DNA of 63,688 nt, the filler included. It is 5 parts of 5 records of this genome, joined end to end, with 100 filler letters (N's around TTAATTAATTAA, not from the genome) between each part and the next. Parts side by side here need not be neighbours in the genome. Positions count along the whole stretch, not along the records: positions 5,777 to 19,585 come from SRR2962707_2009; 4 more parts are not named here. One strand, given 5' to 3'. The translations under genes and the position numbers were made by a program. Under the pieces are notes generated by a model. The model was not told the origin of the DNA. It worked only from the letters and a program-made list of their open reading frames with translations, and did no database searches. Shown here in pieces: positions 5,777-55,070 of this stretch. The first letter of the stretch is position 1; each line of letters begins with the position of its first letter.

Positions 5777-6449
5777 CCGCTACGGCGACAACGACCGGCT
5801 TGCCGCGCGGGTCGCGAGCATGGTCTCAGCCGACTGCCTCGTGCTGCTTTCCGATGTCGACGGACTTTACACCGCGCCGCCGCACCTGCCCGGCGCTGAG
5901 CATCTGGCCGAAGTGACCGAGATCACACCCGAGATCGAGGCGATGGCGGGCGACGCCGCCAGCATCTATTCGCGCGGCGGGATGAAGACGAAAATCGCCG
6001 CCGCCCGCATCGCGACCGAAGGTGGCGCACGCATGGCGATTGCCAATGGCCGCTCGTTGCACCCGTTGAAGGCGATGGAGGACGGCGCGCGCTGCACCTG
6101 GTTTGCGGCGCACACGACACCCGTTGCCTCCCGCAAGCGCTGGATCTCTGGCTCTCTGAAAAGCCTCGGCACCATCACCATCGATGAGGGCGCGGTGAAG
6201 GCGTTGATGGGTGGACGAAGCCTGCTCCCTGCGGGCATCACCGCGATCGACGGCGAGTTCGGGCGAGGCGACGCCGTGACCGTACGTGACGGCGAGGGAC
6301 ACGAGATCGCACGCGGCCTCAGCGCCTATGCGAGCGAGGATGCGCGCGCCATCATGGGCCATTCGAGCCACGAAACAGAAGAATTGCTCGGCTATTCAGG
6401 CCGCGCCGAGATGATCCACCGGGACGATCTGGTGTTGAAAAAGCCGTGA
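5777..6449 (+). CDS. proB: Glutamate 5-kinase, 5'-truncated
   Basis: YGDNDRLAA at the contig start, [19 protein letters not shown] and a C-terminal PUA domain (SLLPAGI...HRDDLVL). Directly upstream of proA. Confidence 0.95.
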
Positions 6450-6481
6450 AAGCCGGACGCACCGGCCCCATATGAGGGCAG

Positions 6482-6509
6482 CCGGACGGCATTGACCGGA
6501 CGGCATTGA
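6482..6509 (+). repeat. Perfect 14-bp tandem duplication CCGGACGGCATTGA x2 between proB and proA
   Basis: Read directly at 6482-6495 and 6496-6509. Confidence 0.9.
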
Positions 6510-6558
6510 AACGGCCACCGCCGCCTGAAATACTGAGGCGGCCTATCGCAAGAGACAG

Positions 6559-7857
6559 GTGACGCAAGTGAGCATCGTGAAACTGAACGCCGAACGGACG
6601 GATGTCGCGGCCTTGATGGCAGGGATCGGCACCAAGGCGCGTGAAGCAGCGACGGCACTGGCGCTCGCCCCGACCAAGCAGAAGGACGCGGCCCTGCTCG
6701 CCGCCGCCATGTGCGTGCGCGCCAACGTCGACGACATCCTGACGGCGAATGCAGAAGATGTGGCGGACGCCCTGAAGAACGGCACCGCCCCGTCCATGAT
6801 CGACCGGCTGACGCTCGACACGAAGCGTGTCGAAGCGATTGCAAGGGCGCTGGAAGAAATCGCGGGCCTCGCCGATCCGGTCGGCTCGAAGATCACCGAA
6901 TGGGACCGCCCCAACGGACTTCACATCGAGCGCGTGCGCGTGCCCCTGGGCGTCATCGGCATCATCTATGAGAGCCGTCCCAATGTGACGGCGGATGCGG
7001 GCGCGCTGTGCCTGAAGGCGGGCAACGCCGCAATCCTGCGCGGCGGCTCGGAAGCCTCGCGCTCCAACAAGGCGATCCATGAGGCGCTTGTCGAAGGCAT
7101 CCTCGCCGCGAACCTGCCCGAAGCCTCGATCCAGCTCGTGCCCACAACGGATCGCGGTGCGGTTGGTGAAATGCTGAAGGGCCTCGGCGGCAATCTCGAC
7201 GTGATCGTGCCGCGCGGCGGCAAGAGTCTTGTCGCGCGCGTGCAGGAAGAGGCGCGCGTGCCCGTCTTCGCGCATCTCGAAGGCGTCTGCCACGTCTATG
7301 TCGACGGCGAAGCCGATCTCGACATGGCGCGCAACATCGTGCTGAACGCGAAGCTCCGACGCACGGGAATTTGCGGCGCGGCGGAAACGCTGCTGATCGA
7401 CGAAGCCTGCGCGGCAACGCATCTGCAGCCTCTCGTCGCGGCGCTGATCGCGGAGGGCTGCGAAGTACGCGGCGACGCGTTCACGCAGAAGACGGACACG
7501 CGCGTGAAGCCTGCTACGGAAGAAGACTGGTACACCGAATATCTCGACGCGATCATTGCGGTGCGCGTCGTGAAAGGCGCCGGCGAGGCGATGGCGCATA
7601 TTGCGAAATACGGCTCGCACCACACCGAATGCATCGTGACCGCGAACCGGAAAACCGCAGATCGCTTCTTCGCCGAAGTGGACAGCGCGATCCTGCTCCA
7701 TAACGCCTCGACGCAATTCGCCGATGGCGGCGAATTCGGCATGGGCGCGGAAATCGGTATTGCCACCGGCAAGTTCCATGCGCGCGGACCGGTCGGCGTC
7801 GAGCAATTGACGGGCTTCAAATATCTGGTGCGCGGCAGCGGTCAGGTCAGACCCTGA
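6559..7857 (+). CDS. proA: Gamma-glutamyl phosphate reductase
   Basis: [24 protein letters not shown], catalytic [37 protein letters not shown]. Confidence 0.97.
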
Positions 7858-7858
7858 C

Positions 7859-8458
7859 ATGCGGCGGGAATTGCTGACGCCGGGACTGAAGGTCGGGCTG
7901 CTTGGCGGCTCCTTCAATCCCGCGCATGACGGCCATCTCCACATCACGAAGATGTGCCTCAAGGCGCTCGGTCTCGACCGCGTGTGGTGGCTCGTTTCGC
8001 CGGGCAATCCGCTGAAGCCGGAAAAAGGCATGGCGCCTTTCGCGGAGCGTTTCGCCTCCGCATGCGCCGTGGCGCGCGATCCGCGCATTACAGTCAGCGA
8101 CATCGAAACACGGCTCGGCACGCGCTATACGGCGGACACGCTCATGGAACTTACCGGACGCTTCCCGGATGTGCGTTTCGTCTGGCTGATGGGCGCAGAC
8201 AACATGCTGCAGTTTCCCAAATGGCGGAACTGGCGGAAAATTGCGGAAACCGTGCCGATTGCCGTTTATCCGCGACCCGGCTACACGCTGAAGGCGCGGC
8301 TTTCCCCGGCGGCGATGTCGTTCGGTGAGGCAACGCTCGACACGAGCGACGCTTCCCTCCTGCCCTATCTCGCACCGCCCGCGCTCGCTTTCCTGACAGG
8401 CCCGGAGAGCAGGCGTTCCGCAACGGAAATCCGGGCGCGCGGGAAACGGCTCGCCTGA
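7859..8458 (+). CDS. nadD: Nicotinate-nucleotide adenylyltransferase
   Basis: GGSFNPAHDGH (HxGH), WLMGADN and SATEIR. Conserved proA-nadD-rsfS-rlmH order. Confidence 0.95.
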   Translation: MRRELLTPGLKVGLLGGSFNPAHDGHLHITKMCLKALGLDRVWWLVSPGNPLKPEKGMAPFAERFASACAVARDPRITVSDIETRLGTRYTADTLMELTGRFPDVRFVWLMGADNMLQFPKWRNWRKIAETVPIAVYPRPGYTLKARLSPAAMSFGEATLDTSDASLLPYLAPPALAFLTGPESRRSATEIRARGKRLA

Positions 8459-8592
8459 CCAAAGCCGTCATCGAAGCGTCGGAATCCGGTCATTGAATTG
8501 AGGCCGCCGCAGTCCTATTCTTTCTGTTGTGGCGGCAATTTTCATATGCCCCACAGGTAGAGGTGCAGTACGCGAAACCAAGGAGTGTGTTC

Positions 8593-9051
8593 CTGAGCAG
8601 ACAATCACAGGACCTCAAGGTCCAGCAACGGCCCGGCAGGGCAAAGCCCGCCAGGGTAAGTGAAAAGGCCACCGCGCAGACGACGGCGCAGAGGGCCGAT
8701 ACCGGCAAGTCTTCCGGGATGCTCGCTCTCGTGCTCGAGAGCCTGGAGGAAGACAAGGCCGAAGAAGTGGTTTCCATCGATCTGACCGGAAAGACACCCA
8801 TCGCCGACCATATGGTGGTCGCGAGCGGGCGGTCGCAGCGCCATGTCGGCGCGGTGGCCGACCATCTCGTGCGCCGCCTGAAGGAGGCCGGGTTCGGCAC
8901 GTCGCAGGTCGAGGGAATGAAACAGGGCGACTGGGTGCTCATCGATGGCGGCGACGTGGTGGTCCACGTGTTCCGCCCCGAAGTGCGCGAGTTCTACAGG
9001 CTGGAGAAGATGTGGTCTGCCGATATACCGGCCGACCAGTTGGCTGTCTGA
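8593..9051 (+). CDS. rsfS: Ribosome silencing factor RsfS (Iojap); start uncertain
   Basis: DKAEEVVSIDL, VASGRSQRHV and WVLIDGGDVVVHVFRPEVREFYRLEKMW. Start placed at the in-frame CTG 7 nt after AGGAG (8581-8585); ATG 8719 is an alternative. Confidence 0.93.
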   Translation: MSRQSQDLKVQQRPGRAKPARVSEKATAQTTAQRADTGKSSGMLALVLESLEEDKAEEVVSIDLTGKTPIADHMVVASGRSQRHVGAVADHLVRRLKEAGFGTSQVEGMKQGDWVLIDGGDVVVHVFRPEVREFYRLEKMWSADIPADQLAV

Positions 9052-9130
9052 GGCTATAGCTCCCTCAGGCGAAGCCCGCGCTTCTCCCCGTCTCCGCTGA
9101 AGGTAGCCGGCCTTGCCGGACGGGGGAATT

Positions 9131-9613
9131 ATGCGCGTTCAGATCTGCGCCGTGGGACGGCTGAAAGCCGGGCCCGAAAAGCTTCTTGTTGGCGAGTACA
9201 TGACGCGCCTCGATGCGGCCGGACGGGCGCTCGGCATTTCCGCGCTGCCTGTCGCCGAAGTCGAGGAAAAGCGGAAGCTCGATGCGCCCGCGCTGATGAT
9301 GCGAGAGGCGGAACTTCTGCTCGGCGCGGCGGCAAAAGGGGCGACAATCGTCGCCCTCGACGAGCGCGGGAAAACCGAAAGCAGCGAAGCCTTCGCCAAA
9401 AGACTGGGGAACTGGCGCGACACCGGCGTTGCCGACATCGCCTTCGTCATCGGCGGCGCGAACGGGCTCGCACCCGAGATACGCGAGAAAGCCGCGCATA
9501 TCATGGCGTTCGGCGCGATGACATGGCCGCATATGCTCGCGCGCGCAATGCTTGCCGAGCAGCTCTATCGTGCCATTACGATACTCTCCGGCCACCCTTA
9601 TCATCGCGCCTGA
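9131..9613 (+). CDS. rlmH: 23S rRNA pseudouridine1915-N3-methyltransferase
   Basis: [16 protein letters not shown] and [33 protein letters not shown] 9131 with GGGGGA RBS. Confidence 0.96.
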
Positions 9614-9729
9614 ACGCAACCCGCCCTACGCAAGTGGACACCTCGTGACGCTTGCACTAGGTTTCGATTTCATGCGCCGAGGGCGCGCCGATTCGAGCCT
9701 CGTTTAGCTCGCGGAACTTCAAGATCATC

Positions 9730-11298
9730 ATGACTGCAATGACCGGCGTTCGACCTCTTGTCCTTGCCTTGCTGGACGGCTGGGGCGCTCGCGGCGAGCG
9801 CGACGGCAATGCGCTCGCGCTGGCGCGGACGCCGATCTACGACCGGCTGGCGGCGACATGGCCGCATACGCAGCTGCAGGCAGCGGGCGAAGCCGTGGGC
9901 CTCGCCTCCGGCAAGCCGGGACATCCACAAGCCGCCTACACAACGCTCGGCGCGGGCCGCGCCGTCGAACCGCCTCTGGCGCGCATCGGCCGCGCCTTTG
10001 CGAGCGAAGGTGCGAACGGCATCGCGGCGCATCCGCTGCTCAAGGAAATCGTCTCGCGCGTGCGCCCGCTCGGCGGCGCGGTCCACCTGATCGGCGCGAT
10101 GACGCCATCGGGCATTGCGGGAAACCAGCATTACATGGCCGTGCTCGCGGCTCTTCTGAGCCATGAGGGCGTGAAAGTCTGGGTCCATGCCGTGATGGAC
10201 GGGCAGGACACCCACCCCCAGAGCGGCATCGACCATCTGAGCGAGTTCCTGGACGATATCGCAGGCGCGGAACATGCGGACCTCGGCAGCGTGCTCGGCC
10301 GCACCTTTGGTTTCGACGACGCTTCCGATCCGGCGGCGACTGCGAGCGCGTGGCGCGCACTCGCCAATGCCGAGGCTCCCATCACCGAATATCCGACCGC
10401 TTATCTGGACGAGTGCTACCGCAAGGGCCTCGCCGACGACCGCGTGCCGCCTGCCCTTGCCTCCTCATTCCGGGGCATCCGGCAGGACGACGCGCTGTTG
10501 CTCGTCAATTTGCAGCCCGACCACGGGCAAAACCTTCTCGCCGCGCTGGCGGACCCGGCAGGCGCCGGGCTGGCCCAGAAATCCCCCGTGCTCTCCGGTG
10601 TCTATTCGCTGGTGAAGCTCGGCACACCGCTCGGAGCGGAGGTCGCGGCGCTTTACGACGCGATGTCCTTCGCGCCGAGCCTTGCCGCCACGCTCGCGGC
10701 CGCCGGGCTGAAGCAGCTGACGCTGACCGAAAGCATCGCGGAAACAAACCTCTCGACCTTCGCGCGCGGCGGCGCGGCATCGTTCTTTGCGGACGAAACC
10801 GTGCTCGTCACCGACACGCCCTCGCCTGCGCAGATCGAGCGGAAACCGGACCTCGCTTCGGCGAGCATCACGAGCGAGCTTCTCGCGGCGCTGAAGAAGG
10901 GCGAGCACGACGTCATCACCGCCGCTTTTGCCAACCCGGCCGTCCTCGGGCGGACCGGCAATTTGAAAGCAACGATTGCAGCCATCGAAGCCGTCGACAA
11001 ATGCCTAGGCAAGATCGCCGCTCAGATCGACAAGCGCGGTGGCACGCTGATCCTGTGCGGCACCTACGGCAAGGCGGAGACGATGCTTGACCCGGAAACG
11101 GGCGGGCCCTGCCGCCGCACCACGGCATCGCCCGTGCCCTTCGTCATGATCGGCGGCCCGAAAGACCTCACGCTCGAACGGGGGACGCTCGCCGATGTCG
11201 CGCCGACGCTTCTCCATCTTTGCGGCGTCGATGCCCCAGCGGCGATGACGGGCAGCTCGCTCATCGCTGCCGAGGCCGCCGACCGGGTCAGTGCGTAG
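9730..11298 (+). CDS. Cofactor-independent phosphoglycerate mutase (GpmI)-like protein, predicted catalytically inactive
   Basis: Colinear with iPGM (LLDGWG, GNALALARTP, GEAVGL, LGAGR, AIEAVDKCLG, GTLADVAPTLL, MTGSSL) and in the usual gpmI position between rlmH and envC. The catalytic motifs are replaced (see findings). Confidence 0.85.
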   Translation: MTAMTGVRPLVLALLDGWGARGERDGNALALARTPIYDRLAATWPHTQLQAAGEAVGLASGKPGHPQAAYTTLGAGRAVEPPLARIGRAFASEGANGIAAHPLLKEIVSRVRPLGGAVHLIGAMTPSGIAGNQHYMAVLAALLSHEGVKVWVHAVMDGQDTHPQSGIDHLSEFLDDIAGAEHADLGSVLGRTFGFDDASDPAATASAWRALANAEAPITEYPTAYLDECYRKGLADDRVPPALASSFRGIRQDDALLLVNLQPDHGQNLLAALADPAGAGLAQKSPVLSGVYSLVKLGTPLGAEVAALYDAMSFAPSLAATLAAAGLKQLTLTESIAETNLSTFARGGAASFFADETVLVTDTPSPAQIERKPDLASASITSELLAALKKGEHDVITAAFANPAVLGRTGNLKATIAAIEAVDKCLGKIAAQIDKRGGTLILCGTYGKAETMLDPETGGPCRRTTASPVPFVMIGGPKDLTLERGTLADVAPTLLHLCGVDAPAAMTGSSLIAAEAADRVSA

Positions 11299-11308
11299 GC
11301 GCGCCCAT

Positions 11309-12646
11309 ATGAGCCTGCGGCCGCTGCCGCTGGCGGCGCTCCTTGCCGCCCTCACAGCGGCGCCTTCCCTCGCGGAAACGGCGGAGCCCGGCGAACTCGA
11401 AACCCTGCAAAAGGAAATCGGCACGACACTTGAGCGCCAGAAGGAACTGCAGGCGCAGGCGGACGCCGCCCGCGAAGAAGCGGGAGAGGTTCGCCGCAAG
11501 CTGATCGGCACGGCGGCGCGGGTCCAGACGCACGAAGCCGACGTTTCGGCTTCCGAGGACAGGCTGCAGGGTCTGAAGGGCGCGGAAGCCGTGCTGACGG
11601 CGCAACTGGAGAAACGCCGGGGCGAGATGGCGGAGCTTCTGGCGGCGCTGACGCGGCTCGACCGGCACCCGCCGCCCGCCCTTGCCGTCCGCCCCGACGA
11701 TGCGCTTTCCTCGATCCGCAGCGCCCTTCTGCTGGGCGCGGTGGTGCCCGAACTTCAGGCGGAAGCGGAGGAACTGCGCGACCGGCTGGAGCAGTTAGCC
11801 GCCCTTCGGCAGGACATTCTGGAGGAGCGCGACACGCTCGAAACGGCCCAGACTTCCCTCGAAGCGGAGCGAGAGGAACTGCAGGCGCTACTCGACCGGA
11901 AGCTGGCGCTCCAGCAGAAATTCGCGAAGGAAGCCGAAAGCGAACAGGCCCGCGCCGAGCGCCTTTCCCGGCAGGCGACGGACCTCTCGGACCTGATCGC
12001 GCGGCTGGAAACAGGCGCCGCCGCCCGGCTGCCCGCCGCCCGGCCCGAATTCTCGCCCGACCCGGAACCCCCGGCCCGGCAGGCCGAACCTGCACCGGAT
12101 CAAGACGTCGAGGAGGCCCCGCAGCGGGAATTCGCCATGCTGCGCCCGCCCGCGACCCCGCCCTCCATGCCTTCCTCGCGGCTTTTCTCGGACGCGAGGG
12201 GCCTGATCCGGCCGCCCGTTGCAGGCGCCGTCATCCGGGATTTCGGCAATCGCGACGCCAGCGGCGCCCGAACGCAGGGAATAACCATTGCCACCCGCAC
12301 CGAAGCACAAATTGTTGCCCCATTTGACGGCAGAATCTCCTATGCGGGGCCGTTCCGGCACTACGGCCAACTCTTGATAATATCTGTCGGAGAGGGCTAC
12401 CATGTGTTGTTGGCGGGCATGAGCAATATCGATTGTGTCGTGGGCCAAAACATCCTTGCCGGCGAGCCGGTCGGCATGATGGGCGCCGCGTCTGCCCGGG
12501 ACGATCTGGCCGTACAAGGAAATTCGGCAAGGCGGGACGGAACCTCGGACTCCGGCCCGGCGCTCTATATCGAGTTCCGCAAGGACGGAGACCCGATCGA
12601 TCCCCGACCCTGGCTGTTGATGAGTGACGAAAAGGCACGTGGTTAA
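11309..12646 (+). CDS. envC: Murein hydrolase activator EnvC family (coiled coil plus degenerate M23/LytM domain)
   Basis: Signal peptide, long coiled coil, and a C-terminal APFDGRISYAGPFRHYGQLLII...LYIEFRKDGDPIDP domain lacking the Zn-ligand His motifs. Confidence 0.88.
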   Translation: MSLRPLPLAALLAALTAAPSLAETAEPGELETLQKEIGTTLERQKELQAQADAAREEAGEVRRKLIGTAARVQTHEADVSASEDRLQGLKGAEAVLTAQLEKRRGEMAELLAALTRLDRHPPPALAVRPDDALSSIRSALLLGAVVPELQAEAEELRDRLEQLAALRQDILEERDTLETAQTSLEAEREELQALLDRKLALQQKFAKEAESEQARAERLSRQATDLSDLIARLETGAAARLPAARPEFSPDPEPPARQAEPAPDQDVEEAPQREFAMLRPPATPPSMPSSRLFSDARGLIRPPVAGAVIRDFGNRDASGARTQGITIATRTEAQIVAPFDGRISYAGPFRHYGQLLIISVGEGYHVLLAGMSNIDCVVGQNILAGEPVGMMGAASARDDLAVQGNSARRDGTSDSGPALYIEFRKDGDPIDPRPWLLMSDEKARG

Positions 12647-13975
12647 ATGAACAAGTCTGTCTTCGCTGGCTTCGCGGTCGGTACCCTCCTCTCCTTCGTC
12701 GCCGTGGCCGGCGTCAAACAGGTCGTTCTCGACACGCCGGCCTACGCGAACGAGGCCAACACTTATCGGCAGCTCAATCTCTTCGGCGACGTTTTCGAGC
12801 GCGTCCGCGCGGACTATGTCGAGCCGACGGATGACGCCAAGCTCGTCGAGAACGCCATCAACGGCATGCTCACCTCGCTCGATCCGCATTCGAGCTACAT
12901 GACGCCGAAGACCTTCCGCGACATGCAGGTGCAGACGCGAGGCGAATTCGGCGGCCTCGGCATCGAAGTCACGATGGAGAACGGTGTCGTCAAGGTCGTG
13001 ACGCCCATCGACGACACGCCCGCGAGCCGCGCAGGCATGCGCCCGAGCGACTACATCACTCATATCGACGGCACGCAGATTCTCGGCCTGACGCTTTCGG
13101 ACGCGGTCGACAAGATGCGCGGGCCGGTCAATACCGACGTCCTGCTGACGGTGGTCCGCAAAGGTGTCGAAGAGCCTTTCGAAGTGAAGCTCACGCGCGA
13201 CATCATCACCATCAAGTCGGTGAAGTTCAATCGCGAGGGCGACATCGGCTATATCCGCGTCACCTCCTTCAATGAACAGACCTCCGACCTGCTGGACGAC
13301 GCCATTACCAGCCTCACCAAGCAGATCGGCGCGTCACGCTTGCGCGGTTTCATCGTCGACCTGCGCAACAATCCGGGCGGCCTGCTCGATCAGGCGATTT
13401 CGGTGAGCGACGAGTTCATGGATGGCGGCGAGATCGTTTCGACGCGCGGCCGCCATCCCGAAGACACGCAGCGTTACAATGCACGCGGCGGCGACGTGAC
13501 GAGCGGCAAGCCGGTCATCGTGCTGTTGAACGGCGGCTCGGCGAGCGCTTCGGAAATCGTCGCGGGCGCGCTGCAGGATCACCGCCGCGCGACCATTCTC
13601 GGCACACGCTCTTTCGGCAAGGGCTCGGTACAGACGATCATCCCACTCGGCTCCGACGGGGCGCTGCGTCTCACGACCGCGCGCTACTACACGCCGTCCG
13701 GCCGCTCGATCCAGGCGAAGGGCATCGACCCCGACATCGTGGTCAACCAGACCCCGCCGGAGGAACGCAAGACTTCGTCCAAGACGGGCGAGTCCGCATT
13801 GCCGGGCCATCTGGCGGCCGAGGAAGGCGACGAGATCGCCGGTTCCGACAGCTTCGTCCCGAAGGACAAGAAAGACGACAAGCAGCTTCTCTATGCGATC
13901 GACCTGCTGAATGGCGCGCGCAAGGATGCGGCTTACCTCGGCGCGGGGCGGACATCGAGCGCAATGGCCAATTGA
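12647..13975 (+). CDS. ctpA: S41 family carboxy-terminal processing protease
   Basis: LDPHS, PDZ GGLGI, DLRNNPGG, SASASE (catalytic Ser), SFGKGSVQ and YYTPSGRSIQ. Confidence 0.95.
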   Translation: MNKSVFAGFAVGTLLSFVAVAGVKQVVLDTPAYANEANTYRQLNLFGDVFERVRADYVEPTDDAKLVENAINGMLTSLDPHSSYMTPKTFRDMQVQTRGEFGGLGIEVTMENGVVKVVTPIDDTPASRAGMRPSDYITHIDGTQILGLTLSDAVDKMRGPVNTDVLLTVVRKGVEEPFEVKLTRDIITIKSVKFNREGDIGYIRVTSFNEQTSDLLDDAITSLTKQIGASRLRGFIVDLRNNPGGLLDQAISVSDEFMDGGEIVSTRGRHPEDTQRYNARGGDVTSGKPVIVLLNGGSASASEIVAGALQDHRRATILGTRSFGKGSVQTIIPLGSDGALRLTTARYYTPSGRSIQAKGIDPDIVVNQTPPEERKTSSKTGESALPGHLAAEEGDEIAGSDSFVPKDKKDDKQLLYAIDLLNGARKDAAYLGAGRTSSAMAN

Positions 13976-14012
13976 GCGCTCCGCAGCGATCCGCCGGAGA
14001 CGATTTGCGAGC

Positions 14013-15281
14013 ATGGTGGCGAAGATAGCGGCGAACGGTTCCGGCCCGGCCCGGAACGGGCACCTGGATGAGGACGGGGGAGGACATGCGGGCCGCATTC
14101 TGGCGGCTGCCGCGCTTCTCGTCGTGCTCGTCTGTGGCGGCACGTTTGCCTGGCTCCTCCTTTCCGATAACAGACTTGCGGGCGAACCCGTGGTCCGCGT
14201 CGCGATTGCACCCGAAGAACCCGAGACGCCCGCGGAGCCGGAGGACGTGGCAAAGGCCGACCCGGAAACGTCACCCGCCGAAACGGCTCTCAACGAACCG
14301 CAAGCCTCCGAAGGCGATGTCGAAGACTTGAGCGCCGACGAGCAGGCGCTGCTCGATGCGGCGCGCAATCTCGACGGCGGCGGAGACAGCGATGTATCGG
14401 GAGAGGTGCGGATCGTCGGCGCGGAAAGCGTGTCCGGCGAAAGCGGAGAGGAAGCGGGCGATGCCGGGGGCACGCCTGTCGTACTTGCCCCTGCGCCCGA
14501 CCCTGCCCTCGTCGAAGAAACCACCGATGGACCGCTGCCGAAGATCGCGCGGGACGGGCGCAAGCCCTGGCAGACCTATGCGCGGCCCGTGCCGCCGGAA
14601 GCACGGATCGATAAGCGCATCGCGCTTGTCGTCAGCGGCATGGGGATCAGCGAAAGCGCGACCGCGCATGCAATCGACGTATTGCCGCCGGAAGTGACGC
14701 TTTCCTTCGCACCTTACGGTTCCGGCCTGCAGGGCTGGATCGCGAAGGCACGGGAGGCGGGTCACGAAGTGCTGCTCGAACTGCCGATGGAGCCTTTCGG
14801 CTATCCGCAGAACGATCCAGGCCCGCACACACTGCTGACGGGCGGCAATGCGGACGAAAATATCTCACGCCTTGAATGGCTGATGAGCCGCTTCACCGGC
14901 TATGCGGGCGTGATGAACTATCAGGGCGCGCGCTTCACGACATCGGCTTCCGCGCTGACGCCGGTCATGTCCGCGCTCGGCGCGCGCGGCCTGCTCTATG
15001 TCGACAATGGCGCCTCGGCCCGGAGCCTCGCGCCGGAAATAGCGAGGAAGGCAGGCATGCCCGCCGTGCAGGCGACGCGCATCGTCGACCCTGTGCAAAA
15101 CCCCGAAGTGATCGCAACCTCGCTCGACACGCTGGAAAAAGTGGCCCGGGAAAAGGGCAGCGCCGTCGGCGTCGCCTCCGGCTTCCCCGTGACGGTCGAT
15201 GCGCTCGTGCAATGGGCGGCGTCGCTGAAGGAAGAGGGCTACGTGCTGGTACCGGTAACGGCGCTGGCCAAAGACAACTGA
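14013..15281 (+). CDS. Divergent polysaccharide deacetylase family protein (YibQ-like), membrane anchored
   Basis: N-terminal TM segment, acidic linker, then VTLSFAPYG, GHEVLLELPMEP, DPGPHTL and GVMNYQG. Usual position after ctpA. Start taken at ATG 14013. Confidence 0.88.
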   Translation: MVAKIAANGSGPARNGHLDEDGGGHAGRILAAAALLVVLVCGGTFAWLLLSDNRLAGEPVVRVAIAPEEPETPAEPEDVAKADPETSPAETALNEPQASEGDVEDLSADEQALLDAARNLDGGGDSDVSGEVRIVGAESVSGESGEEAGDAGGTPVVLAPAPDPALVEETTDGPLPKIARDGRKPWQTYARPVPPEARIDKRIALVVSGMGISESATAHAIDVLPPEVTLSFAPYGSGLQGWIAKAREAGHEVLLELPMEPFGYPQNDPGPHTLLTGGNADENISRLEWLMSRFTGYAGVMNYQGARFTTSASALTPVMSALGARGLLYVDNGASARSLAPEIARKAGMPAVQATRIVDPVQNPEVIATSLDTLEKVAREKGSAVGVASGFPVTVDALVQWAASLKEEGYVLVPVTALAKDN

Positions 15282-15295
15282 CGAAAGCGGAAGAC

Positions 15296-15820
15296 ATGCC
15301 GAGCCACAAGAAAGAGGGAACGCCGGTCGCGCCCGAAACGCTGCCTTACCGGCCATGTGTCGGCATCATGCTGATCAACCGGGATGGCCTCGTCTGGACC
15401 GGCAACCGCATCCAGGAAGTCGATACCGGAAGCCCTCTCAGCTGGCAGATGCCGCAGGGCGGGATCGACGATGGCGAAGAACCGGCGCAGGCCGCCTTCC
15501 GCGAGCTGAAGGAAGAGACGGGCACGGATAAGGCAAGGATCATCGGCGAGACGCAGGACTGGCTCACTTACGAGCTGCCGCCCCATCTCGTCGGGATCGC
15601 CCTGAAAGGGAAGTATCGCGGGCAGAAACAGAAATGGTTCGCCATGCGATTTACCGGGAAAGACGACGACATCGACATCGCCGCGGATGCGCACCAGGAA
15701 TTCAGCGAATGGGCCTGGCTGCCGGTGTCGGAACTCGTCGAACTCATCGTACCGTTCAAGCGCGGTGTCTACGAACAGATCGTTCGCGAACTGGGGCCGC
15801 TTGCGCAGCCGGGTACGTGA
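15296..15820 (+). CDS. rppH: RNA pyrophosphohydrolase
   Basis: LPYRPCVG, Nudix box WQMPQGGIDDGE...AAFRELKEETG, YRGQKQKWF and VPFKRGVY. Confidence 0.95.
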   Translation: MPSHKKEGTPVAPETLPYRPCVGIMLINRDGLVWTGNRIQEVDTGSPLSWQMPQGGIDDGEEPAQAAFRELKEETGTDKARIIGETQDWLTYELPPHLVGIALKGKYRGQKQKWFAMRFTGKDDDIDIAADAHQEFSEWAWLPVSELVELIVPFKRGVYEQIVRELGPLAQPGT

Positions 15821-15830
15821 CCCGGCCGCC

Positions 15831-16913
15831 TCAACCCGCCGCCTTCCACCCGCTGCCGATTGCCTCAAGCTGCTCCGCAAGCGGCATTACGCGCGTCTCG
15901 AACGCATAGCGCGCATAATCCCATCGCTCGCCCGCACGAAGCGCAAAGATGCGTCCGAGCTTTTCTTCCATCACGGCAACGAGCGACATCAGACGATCGA
16001 TGCGCGGCTGCACCTCACCCGGCACCTGTTCGCGCACGGAAAGAAGCGTCTCGCGCATGGCCGAGAAATTATCGGTGCCCGCCGATGCCGGCGGCTCCAT
16101 CCGATCGCTTGCGACAATGTATTTGCCGATATCGTCCTTCAGGCTTTCGAGCTCGCCGCGAAACTGCGCGAAAGGTCCGACAGGCCCGACCTCGTCGGGC
16201 GAGGACACGGCGAGCATGGCGCTCATTGCCTCGCCACAAAGGCTCTGTGCTTCCGCAAGTGCCGGGCGGACATCTTCCGTGTAAAGCTGCAGACCAGGAT
16301 AGCGGTTCAACGTGCCGACGATGGAGGCGACCGCGCGCTCTTCAGCGAGAAGACTGGCGAGAAGCCGCTTGGCCTCCACGAACTCGACAAGCCGCTGGCC
16401 GTCTGTCCAGTCAGCGGAATGCGTTTCAAGAATATCGGCCGCCGATTGAAGGCGCACGGTGGCATCGAGCCATTCCATGCGGAAGCCTTCGCCATCGGTC
16501 AGCAGATAGCCGCGAAGCGCGACGACGCTTGCCTCGCGAGCCGCCAAAAACTCCTGGAGAGCGACGTCGAAATCGGGCACGGCCGTGACCGGCGCGCCGT
16601 CCGCCGTGTCCGCGCGGGCGGAGGTGCTGCCCGCTCCGGACGGCGACGTGCCGCGCTCATCCGGGGAAAAACCAAGGTAACCCGCGCCTCCTGCTGCGAG
16701 CAGCGGGAAGATGAGCCATAGCCGCTTGCGGCGCGGCCGCGCGGAAGGAAATGCATTCTTGATAAGGCGCTTCTTTTTGGCGGAGGACTTTGCCACGGGA
16801 GCGCCGTCCCGGGCGGTCTTGTCTGTAAAGACCTTGTCGTTATCGGCGTCGGGCGGCAATCCGTACCGCGTGCGCCAGTAGTTCTCCGCATCGCGCGTAG
16901 CTGTAAAAGGCAT
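15831..16913 (-). CDS. Hypothetical single-pass membrane protein
   Basis: 360-aa ORF that fills the gap after rppH: basic N-terminus, hydrophobic LWLIFPLLAAGGAGYLGF segment, then a helical-looking domain. No family recognised. Confidence 0.6.
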   Translation of the reverse strand: MPFTATRDAENYWRTRYGLPPDADNDKVFTDKTARDGAPVAKSSAKKKRLIKNAFPSARPRRKRLWLIFPLLAAGGAGYLGFSPDERGTSPSGAGSTSARADTADGAPVTAVPDFDVALQEFLAAREASVVALRGYLLTDGEGFRMEWLDATVRLQSAADILETHSADWTDGQRLVEFVEAKRLLASLLAEERAVASIVGTLNRYPGLQLYTEDVRPALAEAQSLCGEAMSAMLAVSSPDEVGPVGPFAQFRGELESLKDDIGKYIVASDRMEPPASAGTDNFSAMRETLLSVREQVPGEVQPRIDRLMSLVAVMEEKLGRIFALRAGERWDYARYAFETRVMPLAEQLEAIGSGWKAAG

Positions 16914-17143
16914 GACACAACCTGTAATGTGCCGAACCCCGACCAGCGACTACAACGCCATGTTAGCGCCAATGCATGGCGAAATGAAAGAAATGATTCG
17001 TGCTGAAATGTAACAAATGTTAGCGAATGCAAGTTTTTTAGTGACAAGAAGCGCTGAATGAGTTGAATCGGGCTTGCGGGGTACGCTTGGACGGCGATGC
17101 GAGAGTGGCCGGACGAGAAAATCGGTCAGTATCCGGAGGGAAG

Positions 17144-17866
17144 ATGTCCTTCATGGCCCGCGGCTTTATACTTCTTTTCACCGGCGCAGCCGCTCTTGTT
17201 CTGCTGGACAAGGACGCTCGTCTTTTCGCGCACGGCATCGTCACCGATGGTTATGCCTATGTCGCGGGACGCGACGTGCCGGTGCCGCTGGAACGGCCGC
17301 CCATGCTGGCGCTTGCCGATCTCGACGATTGCCTGCGCGGGACGGGCCGCGTCAACGGTGCCGACGCCTATGCGGCGTTCTGCGCCGATCTTGCGAGCTT
17401 CATGCCCGGAGAGCTCACGCCCATCGCGCAAGGCGATACGATGCCGGTTGAACCGCCGGAACGCGAGGTCGCCGATGCACGCGCAACCGGCGACACGCAG
17501 GAGGCCGGCGAACCTTTCTGCACCGCGGACATTCCGGCAATTGTCCATCGCAGCGGCGGCAAGACAAGCGAAGTCGTTGTCGTGCCGCAAGGCTGCAGCG
17601 TGCAGAGCCCCGCCGCCGGAAAAATTCTCTATGCCGGATTCTTCAAGGGTTATCTCGGCGTCATCATTCTGGAAACGCTAAGTGAAACGCGGCTCACCGT
17701 TGCCGGCCTCGGCAATGTCTCGGTGCGGCGCGGCGACGAGTTGTTGGCGGGAAATGAAATCGGCATCAGTTCGGAAACGATTGCGCCGGCACTTGCCGAC
17801 GCGGCGGATGGCGCGGGCGCGGCGCTTCTCGTCGTTGCCGATGCGACGGCGGCGCCGGCGTCCTGA
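17144..17866 (+). CDS. Hypothetical exported/membrane protein with a degenerate M23/LytM-like C-terminal domain
   Basis: N-terminal hydrophobic segment. C-terminal VQSPAAGKILYAGFFKGYLGVIIL...VAGLGNVSVRRGDELLAGNEIG parallels the EnvC M23 domain. GGAGGG RBS; ATG 17153 is an alternative start. Confidence 0.65.
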   Translation: MSFMARGFILLFTGAAALVLLDKDARLFAHGIVTDGYAYVAGRDVPVPLERPPMLALADLDDCLRGTGRVNGADAYAAFCADLASFMPGELTPIAQGDTMPVEPPEREVADARATGDTQEAGEPFCTADIPAIVHRSGGKTSEVVVVPQGCSVQSPAAGKILYAGFFKGYLGVIILETLSETRLTVAGLGNVSVRRGDELLAGNEIGISSETIAPALADAADGAGAALLVVADATAAPAS

Positions 17867-17872
17867 CAGCCC

Positions 17873-18697
17873 TCAGATCGCCGTGCGCGCGAGCTGCCAG
17901 TTGCGGAAGCGCCAGTAGCTCCAGGCAAAAGAGGCCACCGCGCGCATGAGTGCACCGTGGGGCTTCAGCCCCGCCGCCTTGCCGACCATCGACACGAGAC
18001 GGTCGACATGCTGGCGGCGATAAAGGCCAAGGGCGCGCTTCTCATAAGCCTTGGCGAAAAGCTTGCGCTCATATTCAACGCTGCCGTCGCCGGGAGTATT
18101 CGCGGAGTAGTAGGCGCGCGCGAGTTCGTCGTCATCGGCCTCCGATATCCGCTCGATGGCGACGCGCAGGCGCGCCAGAACGGAGGGTGGCTCTTCGCCG
18201 AGATCGTTGAAAAGGTCGTAGAAGAGCTTGTAGTGGCGAAACTCGTCCGCCGCGATGTTGCTCACGATCTGTTTCAGGACGGGCTCGTCGGTCGCATCCT
18301 TGATCGCAGTGTAATAGGACGACGTGCCGCTTTCGACGACACAGCGCGCGATCAGCTCGCCGCCGCGGCTGCCGCGCACGGATTCGATGGCATTTGGATT
18401 GATCGAGTAATCCGCCTGGAAGCGTGCAAACGACGCATCGAAGTCGAACGCCGGATCGGCCAGCGCCGCCCAGCGCGCGAGCGCTTGCCCGTGCTGCACT
18501 TCTTCGCTGCCCCATAGCTGGATCGCCTCTTTCACATCCGGCCTGTCGGCGAAGACGTTGCAGAGATAGGTCACATAATCGGGCGCGTTGAACTCGACCA
18601 TTGCAGCCGCCTTCACGGCGCGCAAAATCTCGGGATCGACCTTGGTGGCGTCGAAATCCTGCCACCTGATATCGTCGAGTGTCCAGTGACGGCTCAT
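17873..18697 (-). CDS. Ferritin-like diiron-carboxylate protein (acyl-ACP desaturase-like)
   Basis: HWTLDDIRW N-terminus and paired ExxH motifs (EEVQH, DEFRH) with upstream Glu ligands (MVEFN, VVESG). Start at ATG 18697. Confidence 0.82.
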   Translation of the reverse strand: MSRHWTLDDIRWQDFDATKVDPEILRAVKAAAMVEFNAPDYVTYLCNVFADRPDVKEAIQLWGSEEVQHGQALARWAALADPAFDFDASFARFQADYSINPNAIESVRGSRGGELIARCVVESGTSSYYTAIKDATDEPVLKQIVSNIAADEFRHYKLFYDLFNDLGEEPPSVLARLRVAIERISEADDDELARAYYSANTPGDGSVEYERKLFAKAYEKRALGLYRRQHVDRLVSMVGKAAGLKPHGALMRAVASFAWSYWRFRNWQLARTAI

Positions 18698-18888
18698 GGC
18701 ATCCAATCCGCTCGTTTTCCCGGGCTGTGTCACAATAACAATATAATCGCGAAACGCGGCGGCTTTAAGGGTGCCGGATTGCCACGGTCCGCTGTTTTTT
18801 GGAAACGCGCGCTGTCTGTTCCGGAAACGAAAGGGCGGCACTCCCGTTCCGGAGGCCGCCCTTTACTAAATCTCTGGCCGGTACGCCG

Positions 18889-19287
18889 TCAGATCGACTG
18901 GCGAAGCTGCTTCAAATGGTCGAGCTTTTCCTGAGCCGCCTGCCGCTTGGCATCTGTCTTGGCGTCCGTCACGTCTTCTTCGGCATTGCCGATTTCACGG
19001 TCGAGCGCCGCCGTATCGAGATCCGCTAGCGGCATCGTGTACTCGGCAAGCACCGTAAGGCCCGCAGGCGTCACTTCCGCGAAACCGCCCCGCACGAAAT
19101 AACGCCGCTGCGGCTGGCCCTGCACATCGACGTCGATAACGCCGGGACGCAGCGTCGACATGACCGGCGCATGACCACCCATGATGCCCATGTCGCCTTC
19201 GACACCGGGCACCACCACCATGTCGACTTCCTCCGACAGGAGGAGCCGCTCGGGCGATACGAGGTCGAAACTCAGCTTCTCGGCCAT
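18889..19287 (-). CDS. atpC: F1F0 ATP synthase epsilon subunit
   Basis: FDLVSPERLL, VPGVEGDMGIMGGHAP, LRPG and VRGGFAEV. Directly downstream of atpD. Confidence 0.96.
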   Translation of the reverse strand: MAEKLSFDLVSPERLLLSEEVDMVVVPGVEGDMGIMGGHAPVMSTLRPGVIDVDVQGQPQRRYFVRGGFAEVTPAGLTVLAEYTMPLADLDTAALDREIGNAEEDVTDAKTDAKRQAAQEKLDHLKQLRQSI

Positions 19288-19299
19288 CTGCCTCTATCC

Positions 19300-19585
<286 letters not shown>

Positions 19586-20658: not shown

Positions 20659-21506
20659 TGCGCCCTGTCGCCGCCCTTCTCTCCGGGGATCGCCTGCACC
20701 TTCAGCATGGGCCGATCGACCTTGTCATCGGGGTGACGGGTGACCGGCAGACGGCATTCGCGGCCGCGCGGGACCGGTTCGAAACGGTGCTGGACGAATT
20801 GGTGGCGGAGCTGGATCTGCTACGGCGACCCGTCAGCGATGCCCCGTTGGGCGCAATCGCAGGGCACATGTTTGATGCCACCTGGCCCCATGCGGATGGC
20901 GTTGTGACCCCGATGGCGGCGGTCGCGGGATCCGTTGCACAAGCGGTCCTGTCGGAGATGGTTGCCGCCACGCCGCTGACCCGCGCCTATGTGAACAACG
21001 GCGGCGACATCGCTTTGCACCTGTCGGGGACCACCACTTATCGCCTGGCGGTGTCGGCGCCGGATGGCACCGGTTTGGGCGTGGTCGAGATTTCGGCCAG
21101 CGATCCAATGCGTGGCATCGCCACCAGTGGGCATGGTGGACGCAGCCTGTCCTTTGGCATTGCGGATGCGGTCACGGTGCTGGCGCGCACAGCGGCGCAG
21201 GCAGATGTGGCGGCGACCCTGATCGCAAACGCGGTTGACGTGCCGGGGCATGCATCGATCCACCGCCAACGTGCCCGCGACGTTCAGCCAGATTCGGACC
21301 TGCGGGACCATATTGTGGTGACACGGGTCGGCCAGTTGACCGCGTCCGAGGTTGACGGGGCTCTCGACCGGGGACAGGCTGTGGCGCAAAAGATGGCCGC
21401 GGCGGGCCTTATCCAAGGTGCGGCGCTGTTTCTGAGGGGGGCGGCACGGGCGACCGGGTCGCCGCGAACACACATTTTACAAGGAAAGACACTGACACAT
21501 GCCTGA
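20658..21506 (+). CDS. UPF0280 / ApbE-like family protein
   Basis: LHLQHGPIDL, TPMAAVAG, VNNGGDIA, ATSGHGGRSLSFGIADAVTV and ADVAATLIAN. ATG overlaps the upstream stop (TGATG). Confidence 0.85.
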   Translation: MRPVAALLSGDRLHLQHGPIDLVIGVTGDRQTAFAAARDRFETVLDELVAELDLLRRPVSDAPLGAIAGHMFDATWPHADGVVTPMAAVAGSVAQAVLSEMVAATPLTRAYVNNGGDIALHLSGTTTYRLAVSAPDGTGLGVVEISASDPMRGIATSGHGGRSLSFGIADAVTVLARTAAQADVAATLIANAVDVPGHASIHRQRARDVQPDSDLRDHIVVTRVGQLTASEVDGALDRGQAVAQKMAAAGLIQGAALFLRGAARATGSPRTHILQGKTLTHA

Positions 21507-22083
21507 TGTCGAAATCCGCAAGATCGTCACCTCAGTTGAGGAAATCTTTCACGAAGGTGGGCCGCGCGCCAATACGCCGCAGAAACGTGGCGCAATCTTT
21601 GCCGTGATCCGGAACCCCTTTGCGGGCCGATATGTCGAGGATATTCAACCCTTCATGGAAGATCTGAGACCGCTTGGCGTCGATCTTGCGCAACGCCTAT
21701 TGGCCGCGCTGGGTGGGGATGCAAAGTTGATCGAGGGTTACGGCAAAGGCGCCATCATCGGCGCCGCCGGAGAGCTGGAGCATGGCGCGCTTTGGCACGC
21801 GCCGGGGGGATATGCCATGCGCGAGGTGCTTGGCGATTCCAAGGCTATCGTACCATCGACCAAAAAGGTCGGCGGCGTGGGCGCGCGCCTGGACGTCCCT
21901 GTGACGCATTTGGATGCGTCCTATGTGCGCAGCCATTTCGACTCCATCGAAGTGGGCTGCAACGATAGCCCGCGCGCGGATGAGCTGCTGTTTGTCCTGG
22001 TGATGACCTCGGGTGCACGGGTGCACAACCGGGCCGGTGGTCTGGCGGCGGCGGACATCAAGGTAGGGGACGGGTTGAAATGA
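21499..22083 (+). CDS. DUF1185 ('amino acid synthesis') family protein, copy 1
   Basis: AVIRNPFAGRY, YGKGAIIGAAGELEHG and YVRSHFD. Confidence 0.85.
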   Translation: MPDVEIRKIVTSVEEIFHEGGPRANTPQKRGAIFAVIRNPFAGRYVEDIQPFMEDLRPLGVDLAQRLLAALGGDAKLIEGYGKGAIIGAAGELEHGALWHAPGGYAMREVLGDSKAIVPSTKKVGGVGARLDVPVTHLDASYVRSHFDSIEVGCNDSPRADELLFVLVMTSGARVHNRAGGLAAADIKVGDGLK

Positions 22084-22664
22084 GCGCGGATATTCGCAAG
22101 ATCGCCGTTTGGGTCGAAGAGACCCATCGCGAAATCGGCCAGACAATCACCCCGCCAACGCGCAAGGCCGTGGCCGTTGCAGTGATCGCCAATCCCTTTG
22201 CCGGGAAATATGTTGATGACCTTAGTGATCTGATGGATATCGGGGCAGAACTGGGTGCGCTGCTGGGCGATAAATGTGTTGCGGCGCTGGGGATCGCGCC
22301 GTCGCAGGCCCAAAGCTATGGTAAGGCCGCCATGGTCGGCGAAAATGGAGAGCTGGAGCATGCCGCTGCCATCCTGCACCCAAAGCTCGGCGCACCTTTG
22401 CGCAAAGCTGTGGAGAAGGGTGCGGCCCTGGTGCCCTCATCCAAAAAGATGGGCGGCCTTGGGCAGGTTCTTGATGTGCCTCTCGGTCACAAGGACGCAG
22501 CTTATGTGCGGTCCCATTTCGACGGGATCGAGGTGCGTCTGAACGATGCCCCGCGCCCAAACGAAATCATGGTTGCCGTGGCTGTCACGGATTCGGGGCG
22601 ACCGCTACCCCGAGTCGGCGGGCTGACACATGAGGATGCTGTGGGCCAAGACGGGTTGCGCTGA
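22080..22664 (+). CDS. DUF1185 family protein, copy 2
   Basis: AVIANPFAGKY, YGKAAMVGENGELEHA, YVRSHFD and GRPLPRVGGL. ATGA overlap with copy 1. Confidence 0.85.
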   Translation: MSADIRKIAVWVEETHREIGQTITPPTRKAVAVAVIANPFAGKYVDDLSDLMDIGAELGALLGDKCVAALGIAPSQAQSYGKAAMVGENGELEHAAAILHPKLGAPLRKAVEKGAALVPSSKKMGGLGQVLDVPLGHKDAAYVRSHFDGIEVRLNDAPRPNEIMVAVAVTDSGRPLPRVGGLTHEDAVGQDGLR

Positions 22665-41010: not shown

Positions 41011-41298
41011 CAGTTCGCTGTCTGGCCCCGCGTCATGCATCGTGGAATTGGAACGATCCGGGCGCAGCTGAGTTGGTCCGCCGGAAAGGTGCGCGCGGCG
41101 GGCTGCGCGCTGTGACCGCGTCACGCAACCAAACGAGTGGGCAAATGATGTCCCACATCGCTGTGGTGAAAAAACCGGCGATGTTCAGGTGTTTAAACGA
41201 TCACAAGCCCGGAAAACCGGCAAGCCGCCGCAATGGGGGGATGCAAATCCCCTGCGTACCTGAAATGGTGACGCAAAATGTCAGGGGAAGCCGAAAAA

Positions 41299-44646: not shown

Positions 44647-44650
44647 ACTG

Positions 44651-47047: not shown

Positions 47048-47051
47048 CGCC

Positions 47052-54075: not shown

Positions 54076-54234
54076 ATGCGGGCTTTTGCCACGCATGGTG
54101 ATAAAAAACAACAATAGTCGCAAAACACACCGAATTGTCGCAGAGCGTCACCAATCCCTCCTTGTTGTCAGGCGTCTGGACTGACATCAGCGCTGCAACA
54201 GCAGTGTAGCACCCCCATCTCACAGGAGGATAAA

Positions 54235-54441: not shown

Positions 54442-54467
54442 AAAAGGCGGGCCCGCAGACCCGCCTT
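54441..54467 (-). terminator. Intrinsic terminator for ilvC, possibly bidirectional
   Basis: AAGGCGGG-N8-CCCGCCTT stem. The A-run at 54441-54445 gives a U tail on the minus strand. Confidence 0.7.
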
Positions 54468-54493
54468 CCATTATTTCATCGCAGACGCGAGGA

Positions 54494-55060: not shown

Positions 55061-55070
55061 GGGCGGGGGC

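Follow-up and report, generated by a model that had tools for sequence, protein, structure and literature searches.

A probable pseudoenzyme derived from phosphoglycerate mutase is retained in front of envC in the Parvibaculaceae

Why would a bacterial family keep, directly upstream of envC, a full-length homologue of the glycolytic enzyme cofactor-independent phosphoglycerate mutase (iPGM, the gpmI or gpmM product) in which most of the active site has been replaced? The question is raised by a stretch of DNA of 63,688 nucleotides, filler included, which we call the window. It consists of five parts of five records of one genome, joined end to end with 100 filler letters between each part and the next; positions 5,777 to 19,585, which contain the gene in question, come from SRR2962707_2009. 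We consider it probable that this open reading frame (ORF), here called pseudo-iPGM, encodes a pseudoenzyme that descends from an ancestral gpmI and has been retained under purifying selection as a folded cytoplasmic protein. It combines two of the features by which a pseudoenzyme is recognized, homology to an enzyme whose essential residues have been lost and purifying selection, which is found here in many lineages.

9730 to 11298, plus strand: pseudo-iPGM ORF (P0001 in our list of relatives), 522 amino acids, full two-domain iPGM fold without the catalytic site

The ORF begins with ATG and runs without interruption to a TAG stop at 11296-11298, and its G+C content at third codon positions (0.81) is typical for genes of the window (60.6% G+C). 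Pfam identifies a Metalloenzyme domain (E 3.5e-36) into which an iPGM_N domain (E 1.5e-25) is inserted, the two-domain architecture of iPGMs of about 510 amino acids, and phmmer comparison with the sequences in the PDB shows residues 8-513 to be colinear with the iPGMs of Bacillus (2IFY, E 2.9e-70; 1EJJ, E 9.2e-70). The NCBIfam equivalog model TIGR01307 also spans the protein from end to end, with a score of 307.2 bits that falls below the cut-off of 330.65; on NF003897 the score is 255.4 bits against a cut-off of 862. The canonical relative P0084 reaches 660.4 bits on TIGR01307. The window protein and relatives that share its altered active site lie on both sides of the TIGR01307 cut-off, with 307, 300, and 334 bits.

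We mapped 18 catalytic, metal-binding, and substrate-binding positions onto the window protein by phmmer alignment to PDB sequences, using the residue numbering of the Bacillus enzyme. From the Bacillus stearothermophilus iPGM, we take Ser62 to be the nucleophile, Asp12, Asp403, His407, Asp444, His445, and His462 to be the Mn ligands, and the others to be substrate binders. The canonical residue is given before its equivalent in pseudo-iPGM.

Asp12 to Asp16 (codon 9775 to 9777, plus strand): kept, and present in 58/58 genomes having this column; former Mn ligand
Asn61 to His65: changed
Ser62 to Pro66 (codon 9925 to 9927, plus strand): changed; position of the phospho-acceptor Ser
His66 to Tyr70: changed
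His123 to Ala130: changed
His125 to Asn132: changed
Arg153 to Gln159: changed
Asp154 to Asp160: kept
Arg185 to Arg191: kept
Arg191 to Asp197: changed
Arg261 to Gln262: changed
Arg264 to His265: changed
Lys336 to Ala337: changed
Asp403 to Ala404: changed; Ala404 through Arg408 (Asp403 through His407 of NPDMVGH) at 10939 to 10953, plus strand
His407 to Arg408: changed
Asp444 to Thr445: changed; Thr445-Tyr446 (Asp444-His445) at 11062 to 11067, plus strand
His445 to Tyr446: changed
His462 to Thr464 (codon 11119 to 11121, plus strand): changed

Fifteen of the 18 functional positions are changed, and the survivors are the equivalents of Asp12, Asp154, and Arg185. Neither Mn site is preserved, as Asp12 is the only one of the six ligands that is kept. 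Among the non-metal positions other than Ser62, Asn61, His66, His123, His125, Arg153, Arg191, Arg261, Arg264, and Lys336 are all changed and Asp154 and Arg185 are kept, so that Arg185 alone remains of the basic substrate binders (Arg153, Arg185, Arg191, Arg261, Arg264, Lys336, and His123). Because canonical sequences also differ at His125, this site was not treated as diagnostic. The PDB entry 1O99 is titled as an S62A mutant.

A preliminary description of this DNA had reported an intact 522-residue frame colinear with iPGM, in which nearly every active-site motif was substituted. The open frame and the end-to-end alignment to solved iPGMs bear this out, and comparison with the iPGM structures, which had been proposed as a check, confirms that the catalytic residues are lost. 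The substituted motifs are found where they had been placed: GHPQAAY at residue 64 (Pro66 at nucleotide 9925), MDGQD at 156, NLQPDH at 260, ESIA at 334, NPAVLGR at 402 (nucleotide 10933), and GTYGK at 444 (nucleotide 11059). CRRT is likewise present at residue 461 (nucleotide 11110) in the place of TAHT, but both HMMER and MAFFT pair His462 with Thr464 and not with Arg463; whichever residue is chosen, there is no His in this stretch. The statement that only the Asp of the N-terminal DG survives was too strict, since Asp160 and Arg191 (Asp154 and Arg185 of Bacillus) are kept besides Asp16.

The losses are shared by a whole group of relatives. From a search of 5.8 billion proteins, 120 relatives were listed, of which P0001-P0083 form the clade of pseudo-iPGM and P0084-P0120 a canonical set. 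The former share 42-100% identity with the window protein, the latter at most 41%. Those members of P0001-P0083 that carry a name are labelled Parvibaculum, Parvibaculaceae, Tepidicaulis, Rhizobiales, or Alphaproteobacteria. Ser62, Asp403, Asp444, His462, Lys336, and Arg264 are absent from 83/83 clade clusters, and all 18 positions are canonical in 36 of the 37 clusters P0084-P0120, the exception being the N-terminally truncated P0096, which differs at His125. Columns that are invariant in 36/37 canonical relatives and changed in 83/83 clade members show that the pattern is not due to chance. A phmmer search of 1.84 billion representatives at 50% identity gave 7702 matches at E ≤0.001; the clade accounts for eight representatives (two of them fragments) with 545-317 bits, and everything else scores at most 299 bits. 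Of 151 tabulated sequences, 86 have the canonical residue at each of the 18 sites, and another 44 depart from it at His125 alone.

At the level of genomes, a scan with VLAA[LM]LSHE, the best conserved peptide chosen for it, recovered 60 loci, which apart from L060 are labelled Parvibaculum, Parvibaculaceae, Tepidicaulis, "Rhodobiaceae", or only Alphaproteobacteria, Hyphomicrobiales, or Pseudomonadota; they include Parvibaculum sedimenti, Parvibaculum indicum, Tepidicaulis marinus, and strain Mf 1.05b.01. With two loci dropped as too short (L059 and L060, the latter a 217-nucleotide scrap), 58 loci and the window form a set of 59 genomes. Ser62, Asp403, Lys336, and Arg264 occur in 0/59 of them and Asp444 and His462 in 0/58, while Asp12 is found in 58/58 and Asp154 and Arg185 in 59/59. 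The His407 position is Arg in 52/59 genomes, and the Ser62 position is A, V, P, M, L, G, I, or Q; at position 265 (Arg264) the clade has H, G, L, D, I, S, T, or A.

In a FastTree phylogeny (LG+gamma) of 100 sequences, 54 degenerate and 46 canonical, all 54 degenerate sequences were monophyletic with a support of 1.0, with no canonical member inside the group and a stem of 0.44 substitutions per site. A single loss is the simplest reading of this tree. Within the clade the erosion is graded: the branches of Tepidicaulis and Mf 1.05b.01 keep some of His66, His123, Arg191, Arg261, His407, and His445, all of which have additionally been lost in the Parvibaculum crown.

Several loci and homologues found in these searches are of interest in their own right. 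The L060 scrap, from a contig labelled Oceanobacillus, shares 54% identity with residues 94-162; its length does not allow classification, and it stands outside all counts. Two differing copies of the whole operon, L030 (52% identity) and L057 (50% identity), occur in one metagenome-assembled genome, on contigs JAUSMV010000032 and JAUSMV010000008; a bin mixing two species is a more likely cause than duplication. The iPGM homologue P0206 keeps all metal ligands and has changed substrate-binding residues, and its substrate may differ. P0252 has Cys at the Ser62 position. P0255 shows partial changes, among which the C-terminal differences may be an artefact of the alignment.

Stop codons occur in none of the 59 full or near-full pseudo-iPGM copies. 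The ratio of nonsynonymous to synonymous substitution rates (dN/dS) was calculated by the Nei-Gojobori method (NG86), and pairs with dS below 0.75 were used for the summary. Over 45 such pairs (dS 0.05-0.75), the ratio for pseudo-iPGM ranged from 0.06 to 0.21 with a median of 0.14; over 17 disjoint genome pairs (dS 0.07-0.72), it ranged from 0.06 to 0.17 with a median of 0.12. The medians of its neighbours in the 17 disjoint pairs were 0.12 for the EnvC-like protein, 0.10 for RlmH, 0.06 for CtpA, and 0.13 for the YibQ-like protein. Between the window and locus L002, the ratio for pseudo-iPGM was 0.047/0.68, or 0.07. When all 934 pairs with a dS of at most 1.5 were included, the median was 0.31; this value, attributed to saturated synonymous sites, was discarded as a summary. 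Identity to the window across the loci was 42-92% for the iPGM-like protein, 46-84% for the EnvC-like protein, 51-88% for RlmH, and 69-95% for CtpA. The iPGM-like protein thus evolves about as fast as its EnvC-like neighbour and therefore does not behave like a pseudogene.

The preliminary description had favored a retained pseudoenzyme over decay and had asked whether orthologues share the substitutions and whether dN/dS lies below 1. Both proved to be so: 58 other genomes carry the same losses, and the values of 0.06-0.17 in the 17 disjoint pairs argue against neutral decay. With the losses shared, the frames free of stop codons, and dN/dS low, retention is the reading that is supported.

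The protein is also predicted to fold. An AlphaFold2 model, built from the alignment of 100 rows (54 degenerate sequences and 46 canonical ones), has a mean predicted local distance difference test score of 94.2, with only residues 1-4 and 518-522 below 50, and a predicted template modelling (TM) score of 0.92. Foldseek comparison with the PDB ranks closed, substrate-bound iPGMs first (1O98 and 1EJJ, TM 0.90; 5VPU, TM 0.93). Because strand 1 of the model begins at residue 10, there is no signal peptide, and pseudo-iPGM should be cytoplasmic. The Arg at the His407 position and the invariant Asp12 equivalent suggest that the old metal pocket may now be filled structurally, by a salt bridge that replaces the metal.

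In the alignment of 100 sequences, conservation reaches at least 90% at 114 positions in the clade of 54 and at 133 in the canonical set; at 52 of these positions, both sets have the same residue. Constraint has been lost in the clade at S66, H130, R159, R197, R262, R265, K337, D445, H446, and H464, among others (canonical residue, window numbering), and several of these positions are highly variable. Other positions are conserved in the clade and variable in canonical iPGMs, namely A137, A141, L143, S144, H145, E172, D176, G179, and A180, and further R251, K424, A431, and K435. Their spacing fits single faces of the helices 133-145, 166-177, and 412-436. The faces at 137-145, 172-180, and 424-435 are candidate contact surfaces, which we offer as a lead; the first two correspond to the following stretch.

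10138 to 10269, plus strand: residues 137-180 (helices 133-145 and 166-177), clade-specific conserved positions; candidate interaction surface

What the retained protein might do has to be considered together with its neighbours. Further upstream in the window are proB (a partial call), proA, and nadD, which are followed by these genes around pseudo-iPGM.

8527 to 9051, plus strand: rsfS, conserved upstream neighbour
9113 to 9613, plus strand: rlmH, conserved upstream neighbour, separated by a 116-nucleotide gap from the pseudo-iPGM start
11309 to 12646, plus strand: EnvC-like protein with signal peptide, coiled coil, and degenerate LytM/M23 domain; ATG at 11309, alternative GTG at 11291
12647 to 13975, plus strand: CtpA-type S41 C-terminal processing protease with PDZ domain
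13911 to 15281, plus strand: YibQ/SddA-like divergent polysaccharide deacetylase of the Atu2773 type, membrane-anchored, metal-ligand positions replaced

In tblastn searches with the window neighbours, the order rsfS-rlmH-[iPGM-like]-envC-like-ctpA-yibQ-like was found wherever the contig reaches. The envC-like gene is downstream in 57/57 loci that extend that far, rlmH is upstream in 57/57, and ctpA is present in 54/54. The corresponding genes of E. coli K-12 are likewise arranged as gpmM-envC-yibQ, and the window locus conforms to the gpmI-envC-(ctpA)-yibQ cluster, with pseudo-iPGM on the same strand and directly upstream of the EnvC-like gene and a YibQ-like gene thereafter. The stop of pseudo-iPGM lies 10 nucleotides before the envC-like ATG at 11309, as had been described; use of the upstream GTG at 11291 would make the two genes overlap instead. 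Terminator-like sites between the cluster genes did not exceed chance (5 found, 9.6 expected).

The EnvC-like and CtpA proteins carry N-terminal export signals. The M23/LytM domain of the former can be aligned with E. coli EnvC (E 5e-16). Neither of the Zn-ligand motifs usual in LytM domains, HxxxD and HxH, is seen in it; they are also missing from E. coli EnvC. From its sequence, the domain looks like the degenerate, activator type. The YibQ-like domain matches Atu2773 (2QV5, E 1.6e-62), and the DD, H, H, and H..H of E. coli YibQ are replaced in it by SG, E, Y, and S..F, so it probably has no metal site. Ahead of the domain are a membrane anchor at the N terminus and then a long acidic linker, neither of which is found in E. 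coli YibQ; this N-terminal part is poorly conserved, as tblastn matches in distant loci cover the C-terminal domain only. In three of the four proteins of the Parvibaculum cluster (pseudo-iPGM and the EnvC-like and YibQ-like proteins), an enzyme fold thus seems to have been kept without its active site. A second, weaker M23/LytM ORF (E 9.5e-07) is found at 17063-17866 on the plus strand, 2 kb downstream of the cluster, and the ORFs in between have no Pfam match.

A 2025 preprint on YibQ, in the parts drawn on here (10.1101/2025.02.18.638797), describes it as SddA, which deacetylates denuded glycan strands in balance with EnvC. Atu2773 is described there as having no Zn ligands, as staying in the envC operon, and as possibly keeping a regulatory role. 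The same source presents gpmM as the third gene of the operon and points to a possible, unexplained link of peptidoglycan hydrolysis to energy metabolism.

If pseudo-iPGM is inactive, which mutase serves glycolysis? In the passages of Foster et al. 2010 (PMC2964296) used here, 702 genomes were surveyed by TBLASTN, and Parvibaculum lavamentivorans was scored as having both cofactor-dependent phosphoglycerate mutase (dPGM) and iPGM; only 3/89 alphaproteobacterial genomes had both. The P. lavamentivorans dPGM is given as the short, probably monomeric Schizosaccharomyces pombe-like type that is common in Rhizobiales, and those passages do not examine the active-site residues of iPGM. The "iPGM" of this organism is P0009 in our list, which is 73% identical to the window protein and degenerate. 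Since the clade members would not be active phosphoglycerate mutases, its score for both forms would mean dPGM only. That a dPGM carries the mutase flux in the organism of the window as well fits the survey of this relative, and we infer it by analogy. No histidine-phosphatase domain was found by Pfam in the 54 further ORFs of the window.

We propose that an ancestral gpmI in front of envC in the Proteobacteria was the source of pseudo-iPGM. In the common ancestor of the Parvibaculaceae, the gene product would have lost its nucleophilic Ser, all but one of its six Mn ligands, and most residues that bind phosphoglycerate; since then, purifying selection would have maintained it as a folded protein of the cytoplasm. 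It presumably cannot interconvert 3-phosphoglycerate (3PG) and 2-phosphoglycerate (2PG), and the mutase step would fall to a short monomeric dPGM like that reported for P. lavamentivorans. What selection preserves would then be a role independent of catalysis, most likely the binding of a partner. That role would probably already have been a second job of GpmI, and it may explain the linkage of gpmI to envC, ctpA, and yibQ. In the most economical story, once a dPGM supplied the catalysis, only the second role would still have been selected.

A bolder version is that GpmI has an old catalysis-independent job tied to the EnvC/CtpA/YibQ module of septal peptidoglycan hydrolysis, and that only this job was kept in the Parvibaculaceae after the dPGM took over. 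We find this version doubtful, with a small chance of being right. If it were true, the second job could be, for example, a cytoplasmic input into the EnvC/CtpA/YibQ system or its expression, the position of gpmI before envC would be explained from E. coli to the Alphaproteobacteria, and pseudo-iPGM would be a natural separation-of-function allele. A scaffold co-expressed with the septal hydrolase regulators had been suggested in the preliminary description. Direct contact of such a scaffold with EnvC or CtpA is topologically awkward: these proteins are exported, and because pseudo-iPGM has no signal peptide and should be cytoplasmic, it is unlikely to touch them directly in the periplasm. Contacts of GpmI with GpmA and with NagB appear among the results of high-throughput E. 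coli screens in the part of PMC8167557 used here, and they make GpmA and NagB candidate partners, as leads and not as evidence.

Some points weigh against a retained pseudoenzyme. Loss of function is read from residues only, and the roles taken for Ser62, Asp403, His407, Asp444, His445, and His462 are supported only indirectly by the invariance of these residues in canonical sequences. The invariant Asp12, Asp154, and Arg185 equivalents leave room for a remodelled small-ligand site. The confidence of the AlphaFold2 model may partly reflect the canonical homologues in its input alignment, as may the closed pose, and the sites of gained constraint may reflect shallower divergence, one family having been compared with many phyla. 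Gene order by itself is no proof of a functional link with EnvC. Finally, neither gpmA nor a second gpmI turned up when E. coli GpmA and GpmM were compared by tblastn with the window and 60 related loci (1.05 Mb), which represent the operon neighbourhood only.

Each of the alternatives nevertheless appears less likely than a retained pseudoenzyme. The protein could be a neofunctionalized enzyme, a mutase, another phosphotransferase, or a hydrolase with a rebuilt site. The alkaline phosphatase superfamily is catalytically versatile, Asp12, Asp154, and Arg185 are invariant, Arg408 and Tyr or Phe446 are well conserved in the clade, and P0206 is a homologue whose substrate residues have changed around intact metal ligands. 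We nonetheless consider such catalysis clearly unlikely: there is no nucleophile, the Ser62 position is not conserved, most ligands of both metal sites are lost in every member, and the replacements (Ala, Gly, Thr, Tyr, and Arg) are not alternative metal ligands. A little less probable again is a constraint at the level of the operon, in which translation of the frame or signals within it are needed for expression of envC, ctpA, and yibQ and the protein itself is idle. The close spacing of the stop (10 nucleotides before the envC ATG, or overlapping its GTG start), the absence of terminator-like sites beyond chance (5 against 9.6 expected), and the invariant gene order would all suit such coupling. 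It would not account for purifying selection on amino acids along the whole length (dN/dS about 0.12, equal in strength to that on the EnvC-like protein) or for the clade-specific conserved residues on helix faces, and a coupling role needs no folded protein of 522 amino acids.

The preliminary description had also raised the possibility of a metabolite sensor, which would bind 3PG or 2PG without turnover. The closed, substrate-bound-like conformation of the model and the kept Arg185 and Asp154 equivalents point in this direction, but the pose may be inherited from the canonical rows of the alignment, and there is no site for the Mn ions that hold the phosphate. The equivalents of His123, Arg153, Arg191, Arg261, Arg264, and Lys336 are replaced in the window protein, and because substrate positions (Arg264, Lys336, and Arg153) are now variable in the clade, retained phosphoglycerate binding is argued against; we regard a sensor as very unlikely. 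Neutral decay, that is, a dying gpmI caught before its first stop codon or frameshift, is hardly credible. It would explain the lost active-site residues, the free variation of the Arg264, Lys336, Ser62, and Arg153 columns, and the NCBIfam score below the cut-off. It is contradicted by 59/59 copies open over their full length at divergences down to 42% identity, by a dN/dS of 0.06-0.17 in 17 independent pairs that equals that of functional neighbours, by the 114 positions at least 90% conserved among 54 clade members, and by the confidently predicted fold.

Other regions of the window deserve brief mention. Positions 54000-63688 have a G+C content of 0.53-0.56, compared with 0.59-0.67 elsewhere in the window, and contain ten called ORFs, none with a Pfam match; an HTH_3 regulator and a radical S-adenosylmethionine gene stand at the boundary. 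No tRNA genes were found in the window. The region may be a foreign island. At 21499-22664 (plus strand), two tandem "AA_synth" (PF06684) paralogues lie beside a MarR regulator and a Rieske/VanA-type oxygenase, and they are followed by branched-chain amino acid ATP-binding cassette and tripartite ATP-independent periplasmic transporters and a set of beta-oxidation genes. Three genes at 41278-47933 (plus strand) encode a transglutaminase-DUF2126 protein (1122 amino acids), a circularly permuted ATP-grasp protein with an Alpha-E domain (809 amino acids), and a transglutaminase-like protein (293 amino acids).

Returning to the retained pseudoenzyme, a text search of the literature, mostly at the level of abstracts, found no description of a dead iPGM, of a pseudo-iPGM clade, or of a functional link between gpmI and envC. 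Pseudoenzymes as such are known, but one that derives from iPGM and is conserved throughout a bacterial family seems to be new. In public records, the clade members are named inconsistently ("iPGM", "phosphoglyceromutase", and "hypothetical protein"), as would be expected of a clade that straddles the TIGR01307 cut-off. Counting them as active phosphoglycerate mutases, whether in annotation or in metabolic models, is probably wrong. The linkage of gpmM, envC, and yibQ is widely conserved and has so far had no explanation. Here catalysis appears to have been dropped and the protein kept in the same slot under selection as strong as that on EnvC, and therefore something besides mutase activity would be selected. 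The clade also offers a clean system for finding that role, and it would add a member derived from a glycolytic enzyme to the bacterial pseudoenzymes, in an operon with degenerate EnvC-like and YibQ-like products.

The closest known system is GpmI/GpmM itself (1EJJ and 1O98; gpmM of E. coli). Pseudo-iPGM resembles it in length, two-domain architecture, end-to-end alignment, fold (TM 0.90-0.93), and genomic slot directly upstream of envC. It differs in having no Ser nucleophile, in lacking five of the six Mn ligands and most other active-site positions, in scoring below the NCBIfam equivalog cut-off, and in belonging to a long-stemmed clade of its own. A parallel case is found in Candidatus Woesearchaeota, in which P0263 and P0267 are full-length iPGM homologues with 13/18 functional positions changed, including the replacement of DH by TY that pseudo-iPGM also shows (GTYGN in the archaeal proteins). 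Unlike the clade of pseudo-iPGM, these come from an unrelated lineage, are 28% identical to the window protein, and score 487 bits on TIGR01307; only two clusters were found, and their next relatives, at 43-44% identity, are canonical. A different kind of likeness is that to EnvC, with its degenerate LytM domain, and to YibQ/SddA of the Atu2773 type, whose inactivity is known or proposed. Like pseudo-iPGM, they have folds derived from enzymes, have lost their metal ligands, and have been retained in the envC cluster. These two are exported and act on or near peptidoglycan, whereas pseudo-iPGM is predicted to stay in the cytoplasm and derives from a glycolytic enzyme.

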